NCBI GenBank assembly: GCA_048938445.1
Contig: JBHLME010000109.1
Span: forward strand, 1-15,547
Length of the DNA: 15,547 bases
Reading direction: 5' to 3'
Source: Promethearchaeota archaeon
GTDB taxonomy: Archaea > Asgardarchaeota > Lokiarchaeia > Sigyniarchaeales > SOKP01
In this document: positions 226 to 15,547 of the stretch, piece after piece
How positions within the stretch are numbered: position 1 is the stretch's first letter
How the letters are laid out: every line of letters starts with the position of its first letter
The notes under the pieces: model-generated
What the model saw: only the letters and a program-made list of their open reading frames with translations
What the model was told of the DNA's origin: nothing
The model's database searches: none
Program-made: the position numbers and the translations under genes

Positions 226-1671
226 TTAACTCACTAAATCGGGATCATATTTCCACAAGTCATTTAAATACCCCATTCTTAACAATCCTTCTGCTGGAAA
301 ACCTTCACCACCAAAGAGCCAAAGTTTATTTTTAGAATCCGCCCAAGAAATGGCGCCCACTCGGGCTCCAGGTCGGCATCCTGGACTATAGACGCCCTTG
401 GTGCCATATATACCATAACTACGATATCCGGTTATTTCACTACCTCCTGATAACCATGTCCAATTTTCACCATCAAATTTCCATAGATCATAGTTCCAAC
501 TCGCTGAATTTAGTGTAAGTGATCCAAAACCACCAAATAAGTAGAAATTATCATCAGAATCCGTCCAAGAGACAGCTCCATATTTACTCCCGGGATAATT
601 TCGTGAATCAGGAATAAATTTCGTTCCAAATACTCCAGGTTGGTTGAGTGTATCATTTCCCGAGATCCAAGTCCAGTTTCCACCGTCAAATTTCCATAGA
701 TCGTTTAATTTGTAAGGATAATCTCGTATTGAATATTTGTCTACCCCACCTCCAAAGAGCCAGAGATTATCATCACTGTCAATCCAAGAAACGGCATCTG
801 TCCTACTTCCGGGATTATTTGAGGGATCTGGAATACCCTTGGTGCCATATACCCCATAATCCGTTCCTACAGCATATCCCGACACCCATGTCCAATTTTC
901 ACCGTCAAATTTCCAAAGATCCCTTAAATATCCCGCCTCTCCTGATTCAGAATATCCCTCTCCCCCATAGAGCCAGAGATTACTATCAGAATCGATCCAT
1001 GAGACGGCATCAGTTCTACTCCCGGGATAATTTAGAGGATCTGGAACACCTTTCATTCCATATACTCCATGTGCATCATGTGTATTATTTCCTGAGATCC
1101 ACGTCCAATTCATTCCGTCAAATTTCCACAAGTCATTTAAATATGCCAATTCTCCCGATTCGTTCAGTCCTTCACCGCCGAAAAGCCAAAGATTATCATC
1201 AGAATCGATCCAAGAAATAGAACCCCTTCTCCCTCCGGGTTTATTAGATGCATCAGGGATACCTTTTTCACCATACACGCTACTGACATTTGCAGTATTA
1301 TCTCCTGACATCCATGTCCAATAAAAACCATCAAATTTCCAGAGGTCATTCAAATATCCACACCTTCGATATACATATTCTTGATTTTCTGCACCGCCAA
1401 AAAGCCAGAGATTATCATTTGAATCAGTCCAAGAGACGGCACCTTCTCTACTCCCAGGACATGTTATTAGACTTGGCACACCTTTCGTCCCATATATACC
1501 GTAAGCACCTGGAAAGTGATTTCCCGAAATCCAAGTCCATCCAAATTCATTATATGGGTTGCTGGATGTGTTAATCAAAAAATAGAACACACTTATAACA
1601 CCAAGAGAAGATCCTACCATGATAATAACTAAAATGATAGCTTTACGTTTCTTTTCCATTTTTTTCACCAT
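226..1671 (-). CDS. Membrane-anchored kelch/galactose oxidase-like beta-propeller protein (6 repeats)
   Basis: Basic N-terminus (KKRK) and one hydrophobic helix (AIILVIIMVGSSLGVISVFYFLI), then six ~71-73 aa repeats WTWxSG...YGxKGxP...PGxRxxAVSWxDSxDNLWLFGG...NDLWKFDG, with the kelch-type GG and W. ATG at 1671 or 1659 is more likely than the track's TTG at 1695. Confidence 0.88.
   Translation of the reverse strand: MVKKMEKKRKAIILVIIMVGSSLGVISVFYFLINTSSNPYNEFGWTWISGNHFPGAYGIYGTKGVPSLITCPGSREGAVSWTDSNDNLWLFGGAENQEYVYRRCGYLNDLWKFDGFYWTWMSGDNTANVSSVYGEKGIPDASNKPGGRRGSISWIDSDDNLWLFGGEGLNESGELAYLNDLWKFDGMNWTWISGNNTHDAHGVYGMKGVPDPLNYPGSRTDAVSWIDSDSNLWLYGGEGYSESGEAGYLRDLWKFDGENWTWVSGYAVGTDYGVYGTKGIPDPSNNPGSRTDAVSWIDSDDNLWLFGGGVDKYSIRDYPYKLNDLWKFDGGNWTWISGNDTLNQPGVFGTKFIPDSRNYPGSKYGAVSWTDSDDNFYLFGGFGSLTLNSASWNYDLWKFDGENWTWLSGGSEITGYRSYGIYGTKGVYSPGCRPGARVGAISWADSKNKLWLFGGEGFPAEGLLRMGYLNDLWKYDPDLVS
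240..1545 (-). repeat. Intragenic tandem repeats (~213-219 nt period) encoding the propeller blades
   Basis: Near-identical DNA blocks such as tccaattttcaccRtcaaatttcca recur at about 459, 672 and 891, with further variants near 1104 and 1317. Confidence 0.85.
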
Positions 1672-1907
1672 TTTTGATTTTCTGTTTATTCTCAAAAGAA
1701 TGTCTTGTCTTTTTTTAATAAGACTTGAATTATAACATTAGCCTGTTTTATATCTTATTTAGTTTTAATTAGATCATGATGATATATAAAGCTTAAAAAT
1801 TTTGTAATATTTTCAAAATTTCTAATATTGTTATAAAAAAATCCTTAATTTATTTGAAAAAAGAAAGAAATTTAAATAAAAATTGAAAATAAATATATGT
1901 TTTATTT

Positions 1908-2662: not shown

Positions 2663-3313
2663 TTATATTTTTTTATAAAGAGTATATGATGATATGACAA
2701 GAATCCATAACATGATAGAAAAAACCATCATCCATTCTGTAATAGGGACTAGATATTGTGTAAAAGGATATATAATTGATATTAAAATAAGTATTAATAA
2801 AAATGCCATCATAAAAGCAGGTATAAAAGCAAATAATGCGATAAAATTTGAATATTTCGAACATTTTATGATTAAATATCCAAATATCGTACAATATATT
2901 ACACCAGTAACCCATGTCAATAAGGCGGTTATGTAATGTAAAATACCTATATAAAGATTGTTTTGATCCGCGGGGAGAACTCCAATCAGAGCCATTAGAA
3001 TACTTGAGATAATAGAGAAAATTATTGCTCCTTTAATAATTCGTTTATCTAAATCTTCTTCATAAAATGAAATTCCAACATACAGGTATAAAATCACTCC
3101 AAAAATACCCGAAAAAATTAATCCAAAATTAAAAATAAGGGCTCCAGGCCCCACTCCTAAAGTACTAACCATATCATGTAAAATACTATATCCTGGGTAT
3201 AAATAAATGGCAATAAAATCACAGATTAAGAAAACTACAGTTGAAACTAAACCAAAAATACCTCCTGGAATAATCTTAAAAAATTTGCTTAATATATCAA
3301 TATAGTTTCCCAT
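2663..3313 (-). CDS. Polytopic membrane protein, DUF998 / Frag1-DRAM-Sfk1-like
   Basis: About 6 hydrophobic helices. YPGYS....VSTLG follows TM1, then FNFGLI, IGVLP and a conserved-type H...A in TM4, with a late EW. The pattern is typical of DUF998-like proteins. Confidence 0.72.
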   Translation of the reverse strand: MGNYIDILSKFFKIIPGGIFGLVSTVVFLICDFIAIYLYPGYSILHDMVSTLGVGPGALIFNFGLIFSGIFGVILYLYVGISFYEEDLDKRIIKGAIIFSIISSILMALIGVLPADQNNLYIGILHYITALLTWVTGVIYCTIFGYLIIKCSKYSNFIALFAFIPAFMMAFLLILILISIIYPFTQYLVPITEWMMVFSIMLWILVISSYTLYKKI

Positions 3314-4495: not shown

Positions 4496-4566
4496 GCGCT
4501 CGTAGTATAGTGGTAGAATCTCTGGTTCCCAACCAGAGGGCGCGGGTTCAATTCCCGCCGGGCGCA
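4496..4566 (+). tRNA. tRNA-Gly(CCC), intronless, CCA not encoded
   Basis: Acceptor stem GCGCTCG/CGGGCGC, D loop AGTGGTA, anticodon stem TCTGG/CCAGA with loop TT-CCC-AA (anticodon 4528-4530), T arm GCGGG-TTCAATT-CCCGC, discriminator A (archaeal/eukaryotic Gly type). Confidence 0.97.
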
Positions 4567-4702: not shown

Positions 4703-4872
4703 TTTTGTCGGGGGAATCCTGCTAAGCCCTTTATCTAATGATTTCAACATAATTTCATTACTTTTTCTCATTTTGGAGAAATTCTTAAAATAATGAAGTT
4801 CTATCTTCTCATATTTTTTATTTAATGACTTAATGCTTACTTCTTCGACTTTAACATAAAATAAAAAAAAAA

Positions 4873-5136
4873 TTATGGACTTATAGTAAAAAGAATTTGA
4901 TTATCTATAAGTTTAGCCATCAGAAGGTTTACAATTTCATCACTATTATCAATATTACTCTTGACGAGTCTTGATTTTAAATATTTTGTAAATACTTCTT
5001 TATATTCTTTAAAATTAGAAGTAGAAGGATCTAAACTGGCATCTCTAAATGCTAGCCTAATCATACCATTACAAGCCAAATGCTTTACTCCTGTCTTTTC
5101 AGATAAAATTTGTCCGTAAACACTAATGAAATCCAT
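4873..5136 (-). CDS. Small soluble, probably all-helical hypothetical protein (87 aa), partner of the 7TM protein
   Basis: The ATG is 3 nt after the upstream stop, with an SD-like GGAGGGA at 5149-5143. Amphipathic helical pattern (GMIRLAFRD, YKEVFTKYLKSRL). A T tract follows the stop on the minus strand. Confidence 0.8.
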   Translation of the reverse strand: MDFISVYGQILSEKTGVKHLACNGMIRLAFRDASLDPSTSNFKEYKEVFTKYLKSRLVKSNIDNSDEIVNLLMAKLIDNQILFTISP

Positions 5137-5139
5137 GAT

Positions 5140-5874
5140 TCATCCCTCCATGAAGCTTTTCATTATTTCATCTTCCGAGAGCTCATCCTTTTCTACTTCG
5201 GGATTATAATTACGATTCAACCACTTTTTCAAGCCCTTTGGTTGGATCCATGCTAAAGATTGAGAAATTATATTCAAGAATATAAATATTGACAGTATTA
5301 TTTGAGCCACCATCGCACTTCGGTCAACTGCATAGAAAGGATATATTACTCCCATAAACCCATAAGAAATTTCAGATAAAATGATTAATAAATATCTCGT
5401 TTTTATCCTTGGTTCAACAAATTGATTGTGTCTAATTTTTCTGTAAGGTCCGATAAGAGCATACGAAATCGATCCATGAACGATGATAAGATTTATACCG
5501 TTAAATATTTCTGTTCCATATAACACCAGGATATGAGAATTAATTCCTAAATAATATAGTCCTCCAAGAGTCAGTTGTATTATTGAAGTAGGAATCAGTA
5601 TTATTAGCAATATCCAAAGAGGATTTTTTTTATCTTTAAAGAGAGCAGTTGATATGAAAAGCACTAATATCACATGATTAAATGGTGTCATGACTATGGA
5701 TAGATAGGTAGACACTGTAAAAATAATATAATTGAAAGCTTCTCCATAAAAGTAAATAGATAGAAGATATAAATTTTTTATTCTATTTTTTTTAGCATGG
5801 AACAGAATAGCTGTTCCTATCAGAGCCCTAATTATTACTAAAAGAATTTGTACACTAAGAAATATAATTTCCAT
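5140..5874 (-). CDS. Seven-transmembrane hypothetical protein (sensor/receptor-like)
   Basis: Seven hydrophobic segments (approx. aa 3-26, 35-55, 57-79, 86-111, 115-141, 161-183, 188-210). Basic loops follow TM1, TM3 and TM5, an amphipathic PKGLKKWLNR follows TM7, and the tail is acidic (ELSEDEIM). Confidence 0.82.
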   Translation of the reverse strand: MEIIFLSVQILLVIIRALIGTAILFHAKKNRIKNLYLLSIYFYGEAFNYIIFTVSTYLSIVMTPFNHVILVLFISTALFKDKKNPLWILLIILIPTSIIQLTLGGLYYLGINSHILVLYGTEIFNGINLIIVHGSISYALIGPYRKIRHNQFVEPRIKTRYLLIILSEISYGFMGVIYPFYAVDRSAMVAQIILSIFIFLNIISQSLAWIQPKGLKKWLNRNYNPEVEKDELSEDEIMKSFMEG

Positions 5875-6170
5875 TGTATATCATTTAAAATTTTTTTTTT
5901 TTAACTAGTACTGCTTTTTATTAATAAATATTTGTGTAAACTAATATGAAGCTAGTTTCTAGGGAGTCTGTCTTAGGTAAATTAGTAATCCATACTAACT
6001 TCAATGAGATTAATTCTAAATTTTGAATCATATTTAATTCTTGTCTCGAACCATTTCCTACATTGGAAGATTCAGGAATTTTAATTTGATTAATTTCTTT
6101 AACCAGAAAGGTTTACTAGTAGGGATGAGTAGAATTTCCTTTTTTGTCAACTAAGTATATAATAGAAAGT

Positions 6171-6198
6171 ATTTTTTTTACCATAGGGTAAAAAAAAT
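6171..6198. promoter_or_regulatory. Perfect 12-bp inverted repeat (operator or hairpin) in the divergent intergenic region
   Basis: ATTTTTTTTACC-ATAG-GGTAAAAAAAAT. The repeat is directly visible, but its function is inferred. Confidence 0.5.
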
Positions 6199-6367
6199 TA
6201 GTATCCATATATCCACGGTATATATTTATCGGCTTTATCTCACCAGGTGTATAAATCTAAATACTTTAATAAACAATTATAAATCTTTTTAAAAAAAAAT
6301 TAAAATATATTCATAGTCTATAATATTATGATTTCTTAAAAAAATTTCGAATAATAATTAACTTTTT

Positions 6368-7111
6368 GTGATGAATATTTCAAAAGAAGAAAAAAAAATT
6401 GATGATACAAAAAAATATATTGGATTTAATGTTTCTGAAGAAACTAAAGATTTTTGGCAAAATTTTGCAAATGAAAATAAAATATCCACAATTTCAAAAT
6501 TAATCCGCCAAAGTGTAGATTTTTACATAAAAATGAAGCCTAAAATGGATTTTTTGGAGAATATCGACAAAATTACTCATGGATTTAAGGAACCTTTAAC
6601 TGCGATTAAGGGGTACTCTCAACTATTAATAGAAGATTATAAAGACGAGTTAGATTGGGACATTTTACTCAAAATTAAAAATATCTTTGATGAGAGTTTA
6701 AAGCTTGAAAAAAAGATTAGTGATGCTATCGAACAGATTTCAACTGAAGATATTATTTTTGATGTTCTAATAATTGATGATGATGATTCAACCATTAATT
6801 TATTAAAAGATTATTTTGATACTAAGGGGTATTCAACCAAGGAAGTGGCAAAGGGAAAAGAAGCACTCATATTATTGAAGAAAAATGTACCTAAACTAAT
6901 AATGCTAGACGTTTTATTACCAGATATCAATGGTTATGAGGTATGTAATAAAATACGTTCTGAACTAAATTTAAAGGATATTCCTATATTTTACATTACC
7001 GCTGTTCCGGAAGGGGAAGTGCGTGAAAAGATAAAAGAAACAGGTGCAAATGGTTATTTTATCAAACCATTTGATTTAAAAAATTTTACTAAATTAAAGT
7101 CTTATTTATAA
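6368..7111 (+). CDS. Response regulator with N-terminal ribbon-helix-helix and HisKA-like domains (RHH-HisKA-REC)
   Basis: KYIGFNVSEETKDFWQNFA...TISKLIRQSVDFYI has the RHH strand-helix-helix pattern. THGFKEPLTAIKGYSQLL is H-box-like (His71). The REC domain has IIDDD, MLD181VLLPDINGYEV, ITA and IKPF. No HATPase domain. Start is GTG 6368 or ATG 6371. Confidence 0.9.
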   Translation: MMNISKEEKKIDDTKKYIGFNVSEETKDFWQNFANENKISTISKLIRQSVDFYIKMKPKMDFLENIDKITHGFKEPLTAIKGYSQLLIEDYKDELDWDILLKIKNIFDESLKLEKKISDAIEQISTEDIIFDVLIIDDDDSTINLLKDYFDTKGYSTKEVAKGKEALILLKKNVPKLIMLDVLLPDINGYEVCNKIRSELNLKDIPIFYITAVPEGEVREKIKETGANGYFIKPFDLKNFTKLKSYL

Positions 7112-7139: not shown

Positions 7140-10100
7140 TCATCCATATTTTTTATTTTTAAACAAGCGTATAGTAAAAATACTTCCTTTATGTCTTCCC
7201 TTTGATTCAACTAGTATATCACCATTATGTAGTTGAACGATTTCTCTTGAAATATATAATCCCAGACCACTACCCTCGGTTATAATGTCTAAATCCTCAT
7301 CAAACCGTTCAATTTTTCCAAATCTTGTAAATAGTTTTTCTCTTTCCTTTTTTGTTATTCCTACACCCGTATCACTCACAATAATATCGATATAGTCGTC
7401 ATCTTCTTTCAGCTTTATAAAAATAGCACCCATTTTAGGCGTATTTTTAATGGCATTTGATAGTAAATTTGAAATTGCTTGACTAATCCAAATTTCATCT
7501 ATTTTTATATGTAATTCTTCGGGAATCTCTTTTTTTAAAAGAATTCCTCTCTCTTTCATGAAAATTTGAAAACTATCAATTGAATCATTAATTACTTTTA
7601 CTAAATCTTGATTTCGAAAATTTAATTTTAAACCACTGGATTCTAACCTCAAGCTATTAATCAGATTATCACTCAATAGTTTTAATCTTTTACCCCCTTT
7701 GTGAATAGTGGAGATCAAATTAAAAATTTTTGGGCTTAAATCTTCTCTATAATTCTCTATTAAGTGTTGGGATGTGCTAAAAATTGATATTAAAGGTGTT
7801 TTCAATTCATGTGAAATTCTTCTAACGAGATCGTTTCTGATTTGGTCAATTTCTCTAAGTCGTTCTATCTCTTGTTTAATTAGTTTTTCAGCTCGTTTAT
7901 TTTCAGTTATATCAAAAATAATTACTTGTACTAAGAATTCTGAACCTAATTTTACCAAATTGAGTTGAGAAAGTATCCAAGCTGAAGTACCATCTTTTTT
8001 ATATATTTGAAATTCATCAGGCTCAACATTTTCCCCCTTGGCTACTCTCTTGAACCGATTTGAAACTTTAGGTAAAATCTCTTTAGGATAGTGTGCTAAA
8101 TCCTTAAAATTCTTATTTAGTAGATCTTGCTTTGTATAACCAAATATTTTTTCTGTAGCTGGATTACAATCATTTATATTTCCATTTAATGATATTAGAG
8201 CAATAGCATATGGAGCAGTTTCAAATAATTGCTTGTATTTTTGTTCAGATTGCTTCAATTTAGTGTCAGCTAACTTTTGTTTGGTCGTATCGGAAACAAT
8301 CATGCCTAATCCCTCACCGACCTTAAATGTTTTAACTGATAAATAACGTCTTCCTACTTTTGGATCTTTATAATTATGCTCTAAGATTATAGGTTCTCCA
8401 GAATTTAATGTGTTAAGAAAATCTTTTAATATATCTGAACCTTTTAAATTTGGAACGATATCTATAATATTATGCCCGATTATAGATTCTTTAATCGTAC
8501 CATTAGGAAAATAATCTTTGATACCAATATCTGATACATCAACGAGATTAAGATTAGAATCCCATATGAAAAAAGCATCTGTTGCAGAATTCATGAAAGA
8601 TCTTAATTTTTCTTCAGATTCCTTTAAGATTACCTCGGCTTTCTTTCGAAATGATACATCTCTCGCTATTAATATTATTTTTAATTCATCCTTGTCATTG
8701 TAGAAGACATTACCTTTTATGTCTAACCATATATAATGACCATTTTTATGTTTAATTCGTGCTTCAATAGCGCCTTCACCACTTATTATCCCACGATTTA
8801 ATACTTTCATTGTCTTGTCTGCATCTTCTGGATGTAATATCTCAAGTGTTGATTTTCCCATTACTTCATCAATCTTATAACCCATGATACGATAACATGG
8901 TTCTTCATTAACATATTCTAATCTAAACTTATCGTCGAGGATTCCAATAATATCATTTGCATTTTCTGTAATTAGTCGATATTTCTTTTCAGATTCTTTT
9001 AATTTTTTTGTTGCTTCTTTCTGCATGGTAATATCTCTTGCATAGATGAGAATTTTTTTTTTATTATCCACATCAATAAATGTATTTCCTTTGAGATGGA
9101 ACCATATAGGTGTTCCATTACTATGTATTAGTTTAGTTTCCAAAGAACCCTCACCTTCTTCAAAGATTTTTAAAAAAGCATTCTGAGTTTTTTCACGACT
9201 ATGAGGATGAATGAAATCTATTGGAGCAAGGTTTTTAATATCTTCTCGTGAATACCCCAATACCTTCTCATGAACAGTTTCATTAATGTATTCAATCTCA
9301 TAATCTTGATTAAAAACAACAATTAAGTCATTTGCATTTTCCGTCATGCGCCTATATTTTTCTTCTGAAATTTTTAATTTTTCATCAGCTTTTACTTGCT
9401 CTGTTATATCATAAATTATACCTTGAATGACCTGTTTTTTTTCTATTCCACTACTAACAGACCTTACAAGATCTCTAATCCATTTTATTTCTCCATCCTT
9501 TTTACGAATGCGATATTTTATATCAGTTATATATCCATCGATTTCATTTAATTTTCTTCCTTCTTCCTTTTTAATTGCTGAATCTTCGGGAATAATGAGA
9601 TCTTCCCAAGTAATATTACCTTGATAAAAATCCTCTTCTAAATATCCAGTGATTTCTTGAACATTACCACGGAAAAAAAACGGATTTGATGATATACTTT
9701 CTGCTTGATACGCAATTCCTTGAAAATCATTTATAAATGAATGATATTTTTCTTCGGTTTCCTTAAATTTAAGTTCAACTTCTTTTTTTTCAGAGATATC
9801 TCTCAAGGTTGATATAAAACCGATTATATTTCCATGTTCATCGTAATAATTCTTCGAGATACTTGAAACCCAGACATAATGTCCTTCTTTATGCAGAATT
9901 CTATATTCTATTGGATTACTGGTTAGAGTTTCTTTTTTTATAACAGCTTCGGAAAAGAGCTTCAATAATTTTTCGCGCTCCTCTGGATGGAGTCTACTAA
10001 ACTTTAATCGTTTTTCACTACCTTCCTTTTCTCCAATAATATCATAATATTGAGGTGATGCATAAATAAAATCACCATCAAAAGCGGTTATAATTATAGC

Positions 10101-10694
10101 ATCTTTCATATTTTCAATGATATTTCGATATTTCTTTTCCGATATTTTTAATTTCTCTAAAACATGATGTTTTTCAAGAACATTACTGATAATATCAGAA
10201 GAAATTTGAAGAATAAGCAAGTCTTCTTTACTCCACTCATGATTTTCCTCTTTACTACAAAGTAATAATGACCCTGCTATTTTTTCTTCAATTTTTAACC
10301 TAAAAGCAACTATGGATTGAATCTGAATGTTTATAAAGAACTTCTTGGTATTTTCACCCTGTAGTATACTTTTAATATCACTCATTTGAACTGGTTTGTC
10401 CTTTCTAAGTTCTTGACAGAACCAAGAGATTTCTTTTGGTGTAATGAGTATTTTCTTATTTGAGGAATGACTTGTTTTTGACCACTCATTTATTAAAGTA
10501 AGAATTCCATTATCTTCATCAAAAAGAAATACACAAACATTATCTATTTTACATAAATTACCTACTTCCATGATTGCTAAATTAATAGCATTTTCAATAC
10601 TTATTGCTTCAATAAAATGACCTGAAATTTTTAAAACAGTATCTTCAATATTAAATCTACTATTTAGCTTATCTAAGTTTTTACTTACCTTCAT
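7140..10694 (-). CDS. Soluble sensor histidine kinase, GAF-6xPAS-HisKA-HATPase_c
   Basis: N-terminal GAF-like region ending EWSKEDLLILQISSDIIS. Six PAS/PAC units each begin SEEKYR-like and end RDISE, YDITE, RDITM, RDVSF, SDTTK and FDITE. H box SHELKTPL, N box NLLSNAIK, G1 DTGVGI, F box LFTRF, G2 GSGLGL. No TM helix. Confidence 0.95.
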   Translation of the reverse strand: MKVSKNLDKLNSRFNIEDTVLKISGHFIEAISIENAINLAIMEVGNLCKIDNVCVFLFDEDNGILTLINEWSKTSHSSNKKILITPKEISWFCQELRKDKPVQMSDIKSILQGENTKKFFINIQIQSIVAFRLKIEEKIAGSLLLCSKEENHEWSKEDLLILQISSDIISNVLEKHHVLEKLKISEKKYRNIIENMKDAIIITAFDGDFIYASPQYYDIIGEKEGSEKRLKFSRLHPEEREKLLKLFSEAVIKKETLTSNPIEYRILHKEGHYVWVSSISKNYYDEHGNIIGFISTLRDISEKKEVELKFKETEEKYHSFINDFQGIAYQAESISSNPFFFRGNVQEITGYLEEDFYQGNITWEDLIIPEDSAIKKEEGRKLNEIDGYITDIKYRIRKKDGEIKWIRDLVRSVSSGIEKKQVIQGIIYDITEQVKADEKLKISEEKYRRMTENANDLIVVFNQDYEIEYINETVHEKVLGYSREDIKNLAPIDFIHPHSREKTQNAFLKIFEEGEGSLETKLIHSNGTPIWFHLKGNTFIDVDNKKKILIYARDITMQKEATKKLKESEKKYRLITENANDIIGILDDKFRLEYVNEEPCYRIMGYKIDEVMGKSTLEILHPEDADKTMKVLNRGIISGEGAIEARIKHKNGHYIWLDIKGNVFYNDKDELKIILIARDVSFRKKAEVILKESEEKLRSFMNSATDAFFIWDSNLNLVDVSDIGIKDYFPNGTIKESIIGHNIIDIVPNLKGSDILKDFLNTLNSGEPIILEHNYKDPKVGRRYLSVKTFKVGEGLGMIVSDTTKQKLADTKLKQSEQKYKQLFETAPYAIALISLNGNINDCNPATEKIFGYTKQDLLNKNFKDLAHYPKEILPKVSNRFKRVAKGENVEPDEFQIYKKDGTSAWILSQLNLVKLGSEFLVQVIIFDITENKRAEKLIKQEIERLREIDQIRNDLVRRISHELKTPLISIFSTSQHLIENYREDLSPKIFNLISTIHKGGKRLKLLSDNLINSLRLESSGLKLNFRNQDLVKVINDSIDSFQIFMKERGILLKKEIPEELHIKIDEIWISQAISNLLSNAIKNTPKMGAIFIKLKEDDDYIDIIVSDTGVGITKKEREKLFTRFGKIERFDEDLDIITEGSGLGLYISREIVQLHNGDILVESKGRHKGSIFTIRLFKNKKYG

Positions 10695-10781: not shown

Positions 10782-12971
10782 TTACCAAGAAAGTCCTTTA
10801 AGAAAGCGTAAATTGTTTATAATTTCCTCCGATTCGTGAGCTGGAACTTCCATATAGGCATGAAACTCATTTTGCCAGAAAGCTTTCCCTGATGTCATTG
10901 AACGGATATCCTCTGCAAATTTAATTGAATTTCTGACAGGTAGGAGAATCTCTATTACTGCTTGATATTCATCTTCATGATCTATCTTTATAATCTTTGC
11001 CGAATTTTTTGATAGTAAGGAACGAGTAGTTTTAATATAATTGGGAGGTAATTGAATGAATGTTTTATATAATGGTTCTAACAAAATTAGCTCACCTTCC
11101 ATCAATCCTTCTTTAATTGCTCTATAAAACATCGTTGAAAGCTCTGTAAAGGCATTTTCTTCATTGAGGTTATCAATATTTAAATCTTTTATTATAATTT
11201 TTACTTCAGTTAAGGATTCACCGCATAAAGGCCCATTTAAGTGGATTTTATCAATTATTTCAAGAATCAGATTTTTATAAAATTCATTTAATTCATTTTT
11301 TCCTTGATATATAACAATATTTAAATCATCATCACATTTCCATAAATTTTCAATATTTTCAGCAGATAAACCTGTATTATCCTTTAAAATACTCTTTATA
11401 TCTTCGAATTCTTTTATAGATTCATAATCATGATACTGGAAATAGTTAATTGTCTTACGATCTAAATGTTCAACTTGAAGTTCTATGAAATTTTGTTTTT
11501 CCTCACTTTTGACAGAAATAATTGAAGATGATTGCCTTAAAGATTCTTTGAAGACAGCTCTGGGTTCAGAAATCGAAACATTGATGCCTCTTTTTTCTAT
11601 ATCATTAGCTGTAACTTCAAGATGTAGGGGGCCTGTTCCAGATAGTAAATATTCACCATTTTCTTCTTTGATTTCGAATTTTATATTTGGGTCTTCAATC
11701 AGAATATTTTCAATCAATTGTTTCATTCTTTCTAAGTCTCTTAAATATTCTGGTTCAATTGAAACTGTAACTACTGGAGTAGAAACATATTTTACACTTT
11801 CAAAGGGAATCATTTTATCTCTATATTCTTGTTCTATTATTGTATCTCCACTTTTTACTCCTTTTAAACCTTCAATTGCTACTATATTCCCAACTGGAAG
11901 AGAATCAACTTGTTCTCTCCTCTGTCCCATGAAAAGGGCTATTTTTTGAATAGTATCATTTTTTTTTTCATTTAAAAGGTATACTCCTCGTTTTTTGGAA
12001 CAACACCCTGAAAAAATTCTTCCCGTTGCTATAAGACGCTGTTTTTCTACTTGAACTTTACTTAAACAAACAATTAGTGGTCCATTTGGAGAACATTCTA
12101 ACATTGCATTTCCAACATCAGAAGTAATATTACCTGCCCAGATCTTCTTAATTCTATATTTTTGAGCCATTACTGGATCGGGTAGATGATCAACAACCAT
12201 TTCTAATATTGCTTCATGAATTGGAAAATATACTGCTAAATCTGAATATGATTCCTTCGTGTATGTCTCCTTTTTATATCTTGATCGAATATCTTTAAAT
12301 TTTAACGTATTTTTTTCTAAAATACTTAATGTAAATCCCCATTTATGAAGAGCACTTCCAAAAGCAACATTTCCATCTGCTGGTGAGACTTTCCATTTGT
12401 TATCAAAAGGTGGATCCGCATGTCTTTCTATTAATTTATTAAAATCATTTATTATTCTCGAATATTTTTTTCTAATCTGTTCATCAGTTAATTTTAATTC
12501 TCTAATAAGGCGATCAACTTTATTAATAAAAAGAATTGGACGCACTCCTTCTTGTAATGCTTGTTTTATGACAGTTTCAGATTGTGCGATGATTTCTTCT
12601 ACAGCATCTACAACAACAATAACACCATCAATTAATCTAAGCGCTCGAGTTACTTTTCCCGAAAAATCTAAATGTCCCGGTGTATCAACTAAATTAATTA
12701 AAAATGATTCATTTTCTTTTGAAGATTTTTCATAATAAAGGGAAATATTTGTAGACTTCATGGTAATTCCTCTCTTCTGCTCCTCTTCTAAATAATCTAA
12801 TGCTCGAGCTTCTCCTGCTAATTCAGGTGATAAAAGTCCTGCTTGACTTAGTAGTGAATCACTTAGCGTAGTTTTCCCATGATCTATATGACCAACAAGA
12901 CCAATATTCCTAATTTTCCGAGTATTTTTCATTAGGTCTAAAATTTCGGATATATCTTTTCGACGGGGCAT
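10782..12971 (-). CDS. Archaeal elongation factor 2 paralog (aEF-2p-like), lacking the diphthamide HRG motif
   Basis: G-domain motifs GHIDHGKTT, RGITM, DTPGHLDF, NKVDR and FGSALHKW, plus GPLCGE, LLEP and IRSMTSGKAFW. Length of 729 aa is typical of aEF-2. Domain IV reads DLNIDNLNEENAFTE where canonical aEF-2 has H-E-D-x-x-H-R-G. The gene is not in a ribosomal protein cluster. Confidence 0.9.
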   Translation of the reverse strand: MPRRKDISEILDLMKNTRKIRNIGLVGHIDHGKTTLSDSLLSQAGLLSPELAGEARALDYLEEEQKRGITMKSTNISLYYEKSSKENESFLINLVDTPGHLDFSGKVTRALRLIDGVIVVVDAVEEIIAQSETVIKQALQEGVRPILFINKVDRLIRELKLTDEQIRKKYSRIINDFNKLIERHADPPFDNKWKVSPADGNVAFGSALHKWGFTLSILEKNTLKFKDIRSRYKKETYTKESYSDLAVYFPIHEAILEMVVDHLPDPVMAQKYRIKKIWAGNITSDVGNAMLECSPNGPLIVCLSKVQVEKQRLIATGRIFSGCCSKKRGVYLLNEKKNDTIQKIALFMGQRREQVDSLPVGNIVAIEGLKGVKSGDTIIEQEYRDKMIPFESVKYVSTPVVTVSIEPEYLRDLERMKQLIENILIEDPNIKFEIKEENGEYLLSGTGPLHLEVTANDIEKRGINVSISEPRAVFKESLRQSSSIISVKSEEKQNFIELQVEHLDRKTINYFQYHDYESIKEFEDIKSILKDNTGLSAENIENLWKCDDDLNIVIYQGKNELNEFYKNLILEIIDKIHLNGPLCGESLTEVKIIIKDLNIDNLNEENAFTELSTMFYRAIKEGLMEGELILLEPLYKTFIQLPPNYIKTTRSLLSKNSAKIIKIDHEDEYQAVIEILLPVRNSIKFAEDIRSMTSGKAFWQNEFHAYMEVPAHESEEIINNLRFLKGLSW

Positions 12972-13550: not shown

Positions 13551-15547
13551 TTAAAGATATTTTTCGTTCTTGTTATTTTCTTCATCCATGTTATCCGAAG
13601 GTTCAGGTGAATCGCTTTTACTATCAATTACAGCATCACTTGATGAATCTTTTCTATAAATTGCATCTGTGAGTTTATTAACACTTTTAGAACTACTTTT
13701 GGTTACTTTTCTTCTCTTAGAAACTACGCTACCTGTTATACTAACTGCTCCAATTCCAACTAAAAGACCTCCTATTCCAATACCCCCGATTTGAATAATG
13801 TTTCCTAAGGTTATTGAATCTGTTGGTAGGCCATATTGATGCTGGGCAAGATATGGCATTACATTTTGTTGAAAGTTCGGTATCCAATTAATAATGCATT
13901 GCATCGCGTGATCATCCAAGCCATTCGCAGATATGAGCTCAGCATAGGCATCGGTATCTTGGGCAACTGCAGCGAACCATTTAGCAAGCCCATTTGGATT
14001 AACCAAGGAATAATCACTCTCTGGATCCCATAATGCCAAGGCAGATTCCAAGGACATGCCCGTTGCTTCGGGAATGCCCACTTCAAATCCGACTCTCTCA
14101 CCACCAACCAAGGGAAGCGGAAAGCCCTCTTCATACATGGCATTTCCCATGACAGTACCATTTGCCCATTGTTCTAAGAGTAAATGGAAACAGAAATCTG
14201 CCATTGGTATTCCATATCCTAATTCGCTTTCGATGAGAATTGGAACTAAATAATCACTAAAACCTCCCGGAGCCCATAACCAATTGAGGATCTTGTCTAT
14301 TTGTTGAAGAGTAATCCCAAAATAGTCCATTAGATCTTGTTTGACAGAAGTATCATCTTTTGCTTTAACCCATGCAGGTATGCCAGTCATCATGTCAAGG
14401 AGAGACAATGGAATGCTTATATTCCATAAATCTTCACATTGATCTAAGGTTAAACCCGATGGTTCTGGAATTCCAACTTCAAGTCCAACCACGGGTCCAC
14501 CAAATCCACCGATAAGTTCATTGAAATCGATTCCCTCATCATATAATTCCATTCCCATTACAGTACCATTCGCCCATTGTTCAAATAATATGATTCTCGC
14601 GAGTTTTTCCATGGGAACGCCGTACCCATACGGTGGAGGTGCTTGTACCAGCTTGGGGAGCAGTTCGTCTGCGAACCTTCCAGGAGCCCATAGCCAGTTG
14701 AGAATGTCATCCAATTGATTTGGATTCAAGAATGTGAATTCATTCAATAAGGTCGTCTGGTCAGTTGATGATGAATTGGCACCAAGCCATACTAGAATTC
14801 CGTCAATATTGGTCAGTGCTAAATCATTAGTCTCATCCCACAACGCCTCGCATTCCTCGACGGTTAAACCTAAAGGATCTGGCAATCCCGCCTCGAAGCC
14901 CGTGGTGTCCGGATCGATTCCATCGATCAAGTCTCCAAAATCCATCCCCAAAGGATAGAGATCCAATCCTAATGCAGTGACGTTAGACCATTGCTCGTAC
15001 AAGATCTGGACCGCAAGCTCGTCAATTGGAACTCCGTATCCTAATTCGCTTTCTATGAGAATTGGGAGTAATTGGTCACTAAAACCACCAGGAGCCCATA
15101 ACCAATTAAGGAGCATGTCCATGTGGGTTTCATTCAAGCCATGCTCATCAAATTCATCTAAAAGCATCGCATATTCTGAAGAACTACTAGATTTATTTGC
15201 TTCATACCATTCTAAGATACCAGTCAAATTAAGGAGGGAATGTTCATTGTTTTTATCCCATAGAGCATAAGACGCATTTAAAGTAATCCCCGAGGCATCT
15301 GGTCGATTGATTTCTAATCCAAACGTGCCTTCAGGAATTTCTTCAACTACGGTGTGAAAATCAACACCATCTTCAAACATTTCACAATCGGCCCATTGTT
15401 CCAAGAAATACATGTATGCGATGTCTTTCGTGTCCATTCCAATGAAGGCGGGCATCATGGTGCTCAATGCGGATTCGGGATCGGCAAATTCATTGATTAA
15501 CAGGGGAATTGCCTTGGGAACCCAATATTCATAATAATAATCATACA
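13551..15547 (-). CDS. Large acidic repeat protein with C-terminal membrane anchor, probably a cell-surface glycoprotein (5'-truncated by the window)
   Basis: The frame stays open past the track start to the window edge (YDYYYEYWVPKAIPLLINEFADPESALSTMMP...). Four ~136-138 aa repeats (EQW...GxExxxP...LWD...GI..W...NWLWAPG). Many NxS/T sequons. A Gly-rich TM (GIGIGGLLVGIGAVSITG) is followed by KRRK and an acidic tail. Confidence 0.88.
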   Translation of the reverse strand, partial: YDYYYEYWVPKAIPLLINEFADPESALSTMMPAFIGMDTKDIAYMYFLEQWADCEMFEDGVDFHTVVEEIPEGTFGLEINRPDASGITLNASYALWDKNNEHSLLNLTGILEWYEANKSSSSSEYAMLLDEFDEHGLNETHMDMLLNWLWAPGGFSDQLLPILIESELGYGVPIDELAVQILYEQWSNVTALGLDLYPLGMDFGDLIDGIDPDTTGFEAGLPDPLGLTVEECEALWDETNDLALTNIDGILVWLGANSSSTDQTTLLNEFTFLNPNQLDDILNWLWAPGRFADELLPKLVQAPPPYGYGVPMEKLARIILFEQWANGTVMGMELYDEGIDFNELIGGFGGPVVGLEVGIPEPSGLTLDQCEDLWNISIPLSLLDMMTGIPAWVKAKDDTSVKQDLMDYFGITLQQIDKILNWLWAPGGFSDYLVPILIESELGYGIPMADFCFHLLLEQWANGTVMGNAMYEEGFPLPLVGGERVGFEVGIPEATGMSLESALALWDPESDYSLVNPNGLAKWFAAVAQDTDAYAELISANGLDDHAMQCIINWIPNFQQNVMPYLAQHQYGLPTDSITLGNIIQIGGIGIGGLLVGIGAVSITGSVVSKRRKVTKSSSKSVNKLTDAIYRKDSSSDAVIDSKSDSPEPSDNMDEENNKNEKYL
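13860..15410 (-). repeat. Intragenic ~411-nt tandem repeats
   Basis: The anchor ggagccca (WAP) occurs at 14269, 14683 and 15091, giving spacings of 414 and 408 nt. EQW occurs four times. Confidence 0.85.

Follow-up and report, generated by a model that had tools for sequence, protein, structure and literature searches.

The window analyzed here is a 15,547-nucleotide (nt) stretch of contig JBHLME010000109.1 from a Promethearchaeota archaeon, and the subject of the analysis is a pair of minus-strand genes within it, the first encoding a protein with seven transmembrane helices (7TM protein) and the second an 87-residue partner (Table 1). The pair probably represents a receptor-plus-adaptor family that feeds two-component kinases. 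The stop codon of the 7TM gene (TGA, 5142-5140) and the start codon of the partner gene (ATG, 5136-5134) are separated by only 3 nt (TGA ATC ATG), which suggests translational coupling, and a GGAGGG box in the 3' end of the 7TM open reading frame (ORF) lies 7 nt from the partner ATG. T-runs terminate archaeal transcription, and the run of ten T residues that follows the partner gene is likely the transcript end of the unit. With the narrow gap, the GGAGGG box and the T-run taken together, the 7TM and partner genes look like a compact two-gene unit.

Table 1. Coordinates of the 7TM gene, its partner and other features of the window
Feature	Position	Strand	Basis or remark
7TM protein gene, 244 residues	5140..5874	(-)	ORF call, hydropathy, charges, AlphaFold2 (AF2) model
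Partner gene, 87-residue four/five-helix cytoplasmic protein	4873..5136	(-)	ORF call, 139 relatives, alignment, AF2 model
Shine-Dalgarno-like GGAGGG box in 3' end of 7TM ORF	5144..5149	(-)	Read from sequence
T10 run directly 3' of partner TAA stop	4863..4872	(-)	Read from sequence
AT-rich intergenic region, 493 bp, between 7TM operon and divergent HisKA-REC gene	5875..6367		Sequence
HisKA-REC protein gene, 247 residues, divergent to 7TM operon	6368..7111	(+)	Pfam
Multi-PAS histidine kinase gene, 1184 residues, convergent with HisKA-REC gene	7140..10694	(-)	Pfam PAS, HisKA, HATPase_c
tRNA-Gly(CCC) gene	4496..4566	(+)	Between 7TM/partner pair and small GTPase
Small GTPase gene, 200 residues	3391..3993		Pfam Arf, Ras, MMR_HSR1

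The pairing of the two genes is real, and it is the strongest result of this analysis. To describe it, the window's genome and 77 loci fetched from related genomes were surveyed with uniformly called ORFs. Among the 81 loci carrying the small gene, 75 had a 7TM gene either as a same-strand neighbor or in fusion with the small gene, which bears out the conserved pairing that the first-pass annotation of the window had proposed as a check. The remaining six modules had no 7TM gene, and three of these lay at contig ends (C184, L095 and L103). In the window's genome, 11 of the 13 ORFs matching the partner profile adjoined or were fused with a family-A 7TM gene; of the other two, one was next to a 7TM fragment where its contig ends, and the other (C109) stood alone. 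Both gene orders were found, as were 7TM-small-7TM triplets, with spacers mostly between -11 and +68 nt. The solitary gene (G000:C109:10469-10744), the sole complete partner gene without a 7TM neighbor, lies just downstream of a deoxyhypusine synthase gene. At L054, from the same genus, the deoxyhypusine synthase gene precedes a small-7TM-small cluster, and the 7TM gene has therefore apparently been lost at C109.

Fusion of the two genes was also observed. The window's genome contains two fused 7TM-partner genes (345 and 351 residues), and the C-terminus matched the partner hidden Markov model (HMM) in 11 of the 16 long 7TM representatives (at least 300 residues) as well as in two fragments; in the other five long forms, the C-terminal domain aligned with weakly matching members. 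One fused form was labeled Sigynarchaeota. A further fused gene was present in an Aggregatilineales (Chloroflexota) bacterium (L029, contig JBBRMW010000032.1, 4001-5005), so that in at least this case the module extends beyond the Asgard archaea. The neighbors of this gene encode phosphoenolpyruvate carboxylase, an aminotransferase and transposases. Two DDE transposase fragments lie next to it, which may point to inter-domain transfer.

When 1.84 billion representatives were searched exhaustively, 138 relatives of the 7TM protein were recovered at an expect value (E) of 0.001 or less, mostly 230-275 residues long, 16 of which had at least 300 residues. The partner profile search returned 139 proteins of approximately 90 residues, none with a Pfam domain, and the partner relatives with a named source were labeled Lokiarchaeota/Promethearchaeota, Hermodarchaeota or Hodarchaeales. 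Close relatives were limited to two for each protein (72-81% identity), and the two contigs that carry them are apparently the same for both proteins. Of 201 sampled genomes of the phylum, 14 carried the partner and 21 the 7TM protein; within the window's GTDB family, the partner was present in 46 of 135 genomes. All five other genomes of the same genus carried four to eight partner copies each, the window's genome having 14 matches, and the 7TM family was strongly expanded in this one Loki-type genus, with 4-14 diverged copies per genome. The protein-atlas clusters closest to the 7TM protein were unnamed Promethearchaeota clusters.

Neither protein matched a Pfam or NCBIfam family at E <= 0.1 beyond chance-level rows, in agreement with the earlier statement that no kinase or cyclase is fused to the 7TM protein, and PADLOC returned no defense-system model beyond a chance-level row of 17 bits over 38 residues. 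A one-by-one Pfam scan of 92 relatives of the 7TM protein and 68 relatives of the partner revealed no recurrent family; matches to Tetraspanin in five of the 92 were a composition artefact. Profile searches of the PDB by sequence gave no usable match for either protein. A match to APH-1B (E 0.025) was rejected because it was not collinear, transmembrane helices (TM) 3-5 of the query being aligned to TM5-7 of the target. Judged by these sequence searches, the 7TM protein and its small adaptor appear to constitute a new family outside Pfam and NCBIfam. Literature searches on Asgard 7TM, G protein-coupled receptor (GPCR) and histidine kinase proteins found no description of the pair. In the available portion of one 2026 preprint, "7TM proteins" and GPCR-like clusters are named, with no further detail, as part of a set of Asgard-eukaryote structural clusters, and its supplements might list the family.

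The AF2 model of the 7TM protein, computed with the alignment of 92 relatives, had a mean predicted local distance difference test score (pLDDT) of 92.8 and a predicted template modeling score of 0.87. It revealed a bundle of seven helices (residues 2-30, 34-54, 56-78, 86-108, 115-147, 155-181 and 187-210) followed by a short helix (213-219) and a tail helix (234-243), with the chain ending 34 residues past TM7. The hydropathy profile was concordant with this count, so the seven hydrophobic helices read from the sequence in the first-pass annotation were recovered in both ways, and its quoted peptides, YRKIRHNQFVEPRIKTR and PKGLKKWLNR, and the acidic tail were all found in the ORF. The inner loops of the query contain 17 lysine and arginine residues and the outer loops contain one, with means of 12.9 and 0.72 over the 92 relatives; the protein is therefore oriented with its N-terminus outside and its C-terminus inside (N-out/C-in), as had been proposed. 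The protein has short outer loops and lacks an N-terminal ectodomain, and several polar residues are present in the outer TM halves of the query. TM7 (187-210) contains no lysine in the query, and the four of 92 relatives that have one carry it in different columns each time, which upholds the earlier exclusion of a rhodopsin.

Structure searches with the 7TM model gave GPCRs and microbial rhodopsins intermixed in Foldseek at E values of 0.2-0.7, with nothing at E <= 0.001. In the exhaustive aligner VIA, the top match was a designed soluble GPCR-like fold (8oyx_B), which showed a Z-score of 12.7 and a root mean square deviation (rmsd) of 4.3 Å over 198 residues; natural GPCRs of several classes and rhodopsins followed at Z-scores of 10-11.7, values that helical bundles can reach through arrangement alone. 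For several rhodopsins, VIA gave Z-scores of 9.9-11.6 and rmsd values of 4.1-4.6 Å over 198-209 aligned residues, with Foldseek E values of at least 0.27. No transporter, channel or enzyme fold headed the Foldseek or VIA searches, so that the seven-helix fold came through the check set for it in the first-pass annotation.

The AF2 model of the partner was all-helical (pLDDT 88.5), with helices at residues 3-15, 19-32, 42-59, 65-78 and 80-84, and the earlier description of a helical protein encoded directly behind the 7TM gene thus agrees with both this model and the 3-nt spacer. The invariant residues of the partner were L11, R56 and Q80. Its C-terminal tail had the consensus NQ(S/I)L(I/F)T, and the copy in the window ends in NQILFTISP. 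Matches to the fold stayed within noise (Foldseek best E 0.77, to a retroviral matrix protein; VIA best Z-score 7.1). The Af1502 structure (5a1q_B) was considered as a candidate fold and set aside, as its Z-score of 6.5 over 67 aligned residues with 19% identity was indistinguishable from chance. In the protein atlas, the partner model resembled hypothetical proteins of approximately 100 residues from Myxococcota (TM-scores of 0.84 and 0.79).

Upon alignment of the 92 relatives of the 7TM protein, we found that conservation was concentrated on the cytoplasmic side, with a score of 0.451 over 138 positions compared with 0.244 over 100 outer positions (Mann-Whitney p = 8e-17). The same asymmetry was present when only the TM halves were considered (0.443 inner versus 0.244 outer), and pairwise identity was 29.8% in the inner and 13.5% in the outer TM halves. 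As many as 34 of the 35 most conserved positions were cytoplasmic. Several consensus motifs mark the cytoplasmic face: TFYxxRKSP follows TM3, EPWIKxRY opens TM6, LAWVMPxxxKxxLNRNY (a WxxP motif with a basic helix 8) covers the end of TM7 and helix 8, and LSEEEI lies in the acidic tail; the versions found in the query are EPRIKTRY, AWIQPKGLKKWLNRNY and LSEDEI. No conserved polar or charged intramembrane site was found across the 92 relatives. A receptor family whose members couple through one shared surface but have diverged in their inputs would be expected to show this pattern.

To examine whether the two proteins might associate, the window pair was modeled as a complex with alignments, and the interface score (ipSAE) was 0.72, 0.68 and 0.68, whereas the best of three controls reached 0.03. 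In the calibration of this score, 116 of 157 solved complexes came up to the mark, as did two of 215 mismatched pairs; these counts are only roughly valid here because our own alignments were used. The partner had a pLDDT of 86 in the complex, and at least 90% of the contacts agreed between runs. In particular, partner residues 77-87, which comprise the NQxLxT tail, contacted residues 32-35, 76-82 and 140-164 of the 7TM protein, corresponding to the inner ends of TM2, TM3, TM5 and TM6. Additionally, the tail of the 7TM protein (residues 225-244, with the LSEEEI motif) rested on the partner in the model, its conserved part (232-244) being among the contacts. The predicted interface included the near-invariant R160 and Y161 of the 7TM protein and, in the partner, the invariant Q80 together with position 81. 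In the fused 351-residue paralogue (C226), the LSxEE motif stands immediately before the partner domain, which fits the 7TM tail as a natural linker. The model supports physical docking of the partner on the 7TM protein, and the multimer check proposed earlier for the 87-residue protein thus came out in favor of an interaction (0.68 against 0.03 for the control).

Histidine kinase genes were frequent beside the module. A kinase gene lay within two genes in 24 of the 81 modules and was directly adjacent in 20, compared with a background of 3.4% of the 4350 genes in the window's genome (45 HATPase_c matches). When the modules were grouped at 45% identity or more, eight of 37 sequence clusters contained a kinase-linked member (rough binomial P 3e-5). 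Five gene orders were found: small-7TM-kinase, 7TM-small-7TM-kinase, kinase-7TM-small, kinase-small-7TM, and the divergent cassette of HisKA-REC and PAS kinase genes seen in the window. Nine of ten neighboring kinases that were checked had no hydrophobic segment. For the PAS kinase of the window, which has none, the maximum 19-residue hydropathy was 1.46. Loci from other genera have a soluble PAS-PAS kinase of approximately 510 residues behind the module, on the same strand and 47-250 nt away.

The arrangement in the window, with the small gene behind the 7TM gene, the divergent HisKA-REC gene and the PAS kinase gene convergent to it, recurs at C214 in the same genome, where the 7TM proteins are 32%, the HisKA-REC proteins 37% and the kinases 36% identical to those of the window. 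The same three partners were found in another genome (G150:C37), and the HisKA-REC relatives at C214 and G150:C37 are both 37% identical. At C43, a kinase gene lies immediately upstream of the 7TM/partner pair. The suggestion that the module might feed the divergently transcribed regulator and the membrane-less kinase has gained support from this recurrence and from the enrichment of kinases. The HisKA-REC protein of the window matched Response_reg (2.3e-22) and HisKA (3.6e-4) in Pfam.

Because the partner is almost always paired or fused with the 7TM protein and soluble histidine kinases are frequent neighbors, the 7TM protein is probably a membrane sensor for histidine kinases that have no membrane segment of their own. 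In the full form of this reading, which we consider somewhat better than an even proposition, the partner docks in the cytoplasmic cavity of a 7TM sensor and relays its state to soluble PAS kinases and HisKA-REC proteins. Sensing would be the task of the outer half of the bundle, which would respond to a small or lipophilic ligand or to the state of the membrane, and the cytoplasmic half would be retained because it holds the 87-residue partner. The NQxLxT tail of the partner would plug the cavity at the inner ends of TM2, TM3, TM5 and TM6, with the acidic tail of the receptor wrapped around the partner. A change in the bundle would then be passed through the adaptor to soluble PAS histidine kinases and HisKA-REC proteins, the putative recipients in the window being the two listed in Table 1, and kinases without a membrane segment would thereby acquire a membrane input. 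The stand-alone 7TM protein with a dedicated partner, as put forward in the first-pass annotation, stands on the seven helices, the conserved pairing and the complex model; its receptor and transducer roles go further, as we infer that the bundle senses a ligand and, likewise, which way its signal runs and what it acts on. Computation has established the class of fold, the topology, the pairing and fusion of the genes, the asymmetry of conservation and the synteny with kinases, whereas docking has the support of a structural model.

Several observations weigh against this reading. Most of the kinase-linked loci (15 of 24) belong to one sequence cluster, and many of these loci are orthologous. 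In 57 of the 81 modules, including 10 of the 13 in the window's genome, there is no kinase within two genes, and the Chloroflexota fused gene likewise has no kinase neighbor; the kinase is therefore perhaps one of several outputs, or its proximity may be a mere habit of the lineage. Conservation at the predicted interface did not significantly exceed that of the remaining cytoplasmic face (0.498 versus 0.436, p = 0.11), and the query departs from the consensus at two near-invariant columns, in which it has L78 and S135 in place of the F and W of most members. The similarity scores to GPCR and rhodopsin folds (Foldseek E >= 0.2; VIA Z-scores of 10-12.7 with rmsd values of 4-5 Å) lie inside the noise band of helical bundles. 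Lastly, the variable outer half could reflect relaxed constraint, for instance on a scaffold, instead of diversified sensing.

The rival that survives best takes up this last point. The 7TM protein would sense nothing and, with its partner, would be a passive anchor or scaffold that tethers soluble proteins such as kinases, its outer half being unconstrained. That every strongly conserved position is cytoplasmic, that the outer loops are very short with no ectodomain and that the outer half has no conserved polar residue would all suit a tether of this type, but seven helices with pLDDT values above 90 throughout are many for an anchor, and the multiplicity of diverged copies within the genus suits different inputs better than a generic tether. 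We consider this explanation unlikely, although it deserves more weight than those that follow.

Coupling to small GTPases in the manner of GPCRs was also weighed, with the partner as an adaptor from the 7TM protein to Ras-, Arf- or RagA-like GTPases. As evident from the survey, GTPase genes directly beside the module on the same strand do occur, at C154 of the window's genome and L132 (RagA-like), at L081 and L101 (Arf-like) and at L049, L102 and L112 (Ras-like), with spacers of 125-205 nt. Overall, however, a GTPase gene lay within two genes in 10 of the 81 modules compared with a background of 7.5%, which is no excess in a genome with 94 GTPase-profile ORFs and 27 Gtr1_RagA-type matches, and the adjacent GTPases span three families. 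In the window, the GTPase gene lies 880 nt away from the pair, beyond the tRNA gene, and is therefore outside the transcription unit of the pair. GTPase coupling was thus rejected as a general feature, and the proposal that the module feeds the nearby GTPase is not supported; a few orthologous groups keep a same-strand GTPase, so a lineage-specific link is possible. As an account of the family, we regard GTPase coupling as improbable.

Just as improbable, in our view, is a role of the 7TM protein in transport, as a channel or transporter controlled by a regulatory subunit, or in immunity or conflict, as a surface protein whose outer face is shaped by an arms race. The expansion of paralogues, the hypervariable outer half and the polar residues in the outer TM halves of the query could be read in this way, but no transporter, channel or enzyme fold led the structure searches, the 92 relatives share no conserved polar or charged site within the membrane, the defense models matched only at chance level, and no recurrent toxin, nuclease or mobile-element genes were found beside the Asgard loci. 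That the two genes are chance neighbors without a functional link can practically be dismissed, given the near-constant pairing, the fusions in both archaea and bacteria, the survival of the pairing through inversion of the gene order and a complex model that clears its controls.

The available text of one study (PMC10343646) describes Asgard kinases as mostly cytoplasmic and interprets them as sensing internal signals only. The module matters for this reason, as it would supply a membrane input; a kinase-linked 7TM protein with a docking adaptor would show how membrane or external input reaches Asgard phosphorelays. The pair of 244 and 87 residues also offers a small, testable case of GPCR-like docking in the cytoplasmic cavity of a prokaryotic 7TM protein, which bears on the long-standing question of the origin of eukaryotic 7TM signaling. 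Even without the kinase link, the predicted assembly would add a new and widely conserved complex to the membranes of the archaea most closely related to eukaryotes.

Other features of the window and of related loci were recorded in their own right. The HisKA-REC proteins beside the module (6368-7111(+) in the window, L031:1275-2171 and L047:803-1696) have a common N-terminal segment (e.g., ...LYVP...STLSKLIR...) that looks ribbon-helix-helix-like by eye; if the segment truly has this fold, these would be unusual DNA-binding phosphorelay proteins. DUF998 membrane proteins are encoded near the module at two paralogous loci, with one copy in the window (2663-3313 (-)) and two copies immediately upstream of the tandem pairs at C154 (C154:8402-10260). 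An EF-2/EF-G-like GTPase of 729 residues is encoded at 10782-12971 (-), its domain IV matching at an E value of just 0.093, and it may be one of the divergent Asgard EF-2 paralogues. At 13551-15545 (-), there is a gene for a protein of more than 660 residues, which has approximately four repeats of about 130 residues with an LNWLWAPGGF motif, a C-terminal membrane helix and no Pfam match. A Kelch-repeat protein is encoded at the opposite end of the window (226-1695 (-)). The G+C content of these two repeat-protein genes is 38-44%, compared with 25-30% elsewhere in the window.

Related systems include a distantly homologous sister 7TM subfamily of approximately 38 ORFs in the window's genome, to which the studied family aligned in hhalign with a probability of 97.1% (E 7.4e-11) over 218 collinear columns. 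The two subfamilies share WVMPxxxKK at the end of TM7, and the sister subfamily differs by having neither the 87-residue partner nor the EPWIKxRY and TFYxxxKSP motifs. Eleven of its members adjoin a recurrent protein of 279-287 residues without a Pfam match (e.g., G000:C137:25499-28335, C17:1636-5439 and C242:352-3012; L071, L072 and L075), and the sister 7TM protein and this protein of approximately 285 residues may be a second receptor-partner system. Three sister proteins of 352-356 residues (G000:C13:5123-6184, C230:11060-12130 and C204:12920-13978) have a C-terminal tail with four CxxC pairs that appears zinc-finger-like; the one of these that was scanned had no Pfam match at E < 0.01. 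On a bolder view, which we hold to be improbable, the approximately 13 7TM receptors and approximately 38 sister proteins would form a chemoreceptor-like repertoire, each member tuned to its own small ligand bound in the outer half of the bundle, with a GPCR-like plug-in transducer and with phosphorelays and, in certain lineages, small GTPases as output, possibly related by descent to GPCR signaling. If this were true, the receptor-plus-plug-in-transducer logic of eukaryotic GPCRs would already have been present in the archaeal relatives of eukaryotes.

As in HisKA_7TM (PF16927), a kinase sensor of the 7TM type already known from archaea, and in other kinase-fused 7TM sensor modules, a 7TM module is proposed here to be the input of a histidine kinase. 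HisKA_7TM is fused N-terminally to its kinase, whereas here the 7TM protein, the small adaptor and the soluble kinase are separate polypeptides, and the long forms among the 138 relatives carry the partner domain and not a kinase. The HisKA_7TM HMM had no match in the query, the 92 relatives or the window's genome; in other Asgard genomes, it matched in nine of 101 sampled at E <= 0.001, seven being above the family cut-off. Alignment of the 92 relatives with ten Asgard HisKA_7TM segments in hhalign reached a probability of just 45.5% over 166 columns with 10% identity. The nearest named protein-atlas cluster (score 0.87) carries HisKA_7TM on 10% of its members, which we treat as a lead only. 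Membership in the 7TM ion channels of insect odorant-receptor type (7TMIC) was also considered and rejected; the accessible part of its description (10.1101/2023.08.30.555482) gives an intracellular N-terminus, an extracellular C-terminus and long TM4-TM6 as criteria, whereas the query has the opposite topology by its lysine and arginine count, 244 residues and a TM4 without an intracellular extension.

GPCRs and the studied family both have seven helices in N-out/C-in orientation with a short amphipathic helix after TM7, a conserved cytoplasmic half with a variable outer half, and a lineage-specific expansion, and GPCR chains were among the best structural matches. Additionally, the C-terminal segment of the partner is predicted to lie in the cavity between the inner parts of TM2, TM3, TM5 and TM6, and the C-terminal helix of G-alpha binds the GPCR cavity in a similar way. 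Class A GPCRs are marked by DRY at the end of TM3 and NPxxY in TM7; in the studied family, TFYxxRKSP follows TM3 instead and TM7 ends with LAWVMP, and unlike G-alpha, the partner is not a GTPase. GPCR sequence models gave no Pfam hit for the query, and a chance-level match (1.5e-3) to a nematode serpentine-receptor model occurred in one of the 92 relatives. The description as GPCR-like therefore stands for the architecture and not for any sequence or HMM relation, with fold scores that remain within the noise of helical bundles.

In the Anabaena sensory rhodopsin operon (ASR/ASRT), the gene of a small soluble partner directly follows the rhodopsin gene. The halobacterial sensory rhodopsins SRI and SRII, with the separately encoded transducers HtrI and HtrII, signal to the kinase CheA, according to the portion available of a published account (PMC13466386). 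Unlike these proteins, the studied family has neither the retinal-binding lysine in TM7 nor a rhodopsin HMM match, and for both reasons it is not a rhodopsin; rhodopsin families were absent from the hits of the 92 relatives (E <= 0.01) and of the query (Pfam E <= 0.1), and no PDB sequence hit was obtained. Neither a two-TM HAMP transducer nor a beta-sandwich, the partner is a soluble four-helix protein, and its contact is predicted at the cytoplasmic cavity and not at the membrane face. The common features are a stand-alone N-out/C-in 7TM bundle without an output domain of its own and an adjoining gene for a dedicated partner. By analogy, the system would work most like the sensory rhodopsins, in which a separate transducer feeds a histidine kinase.

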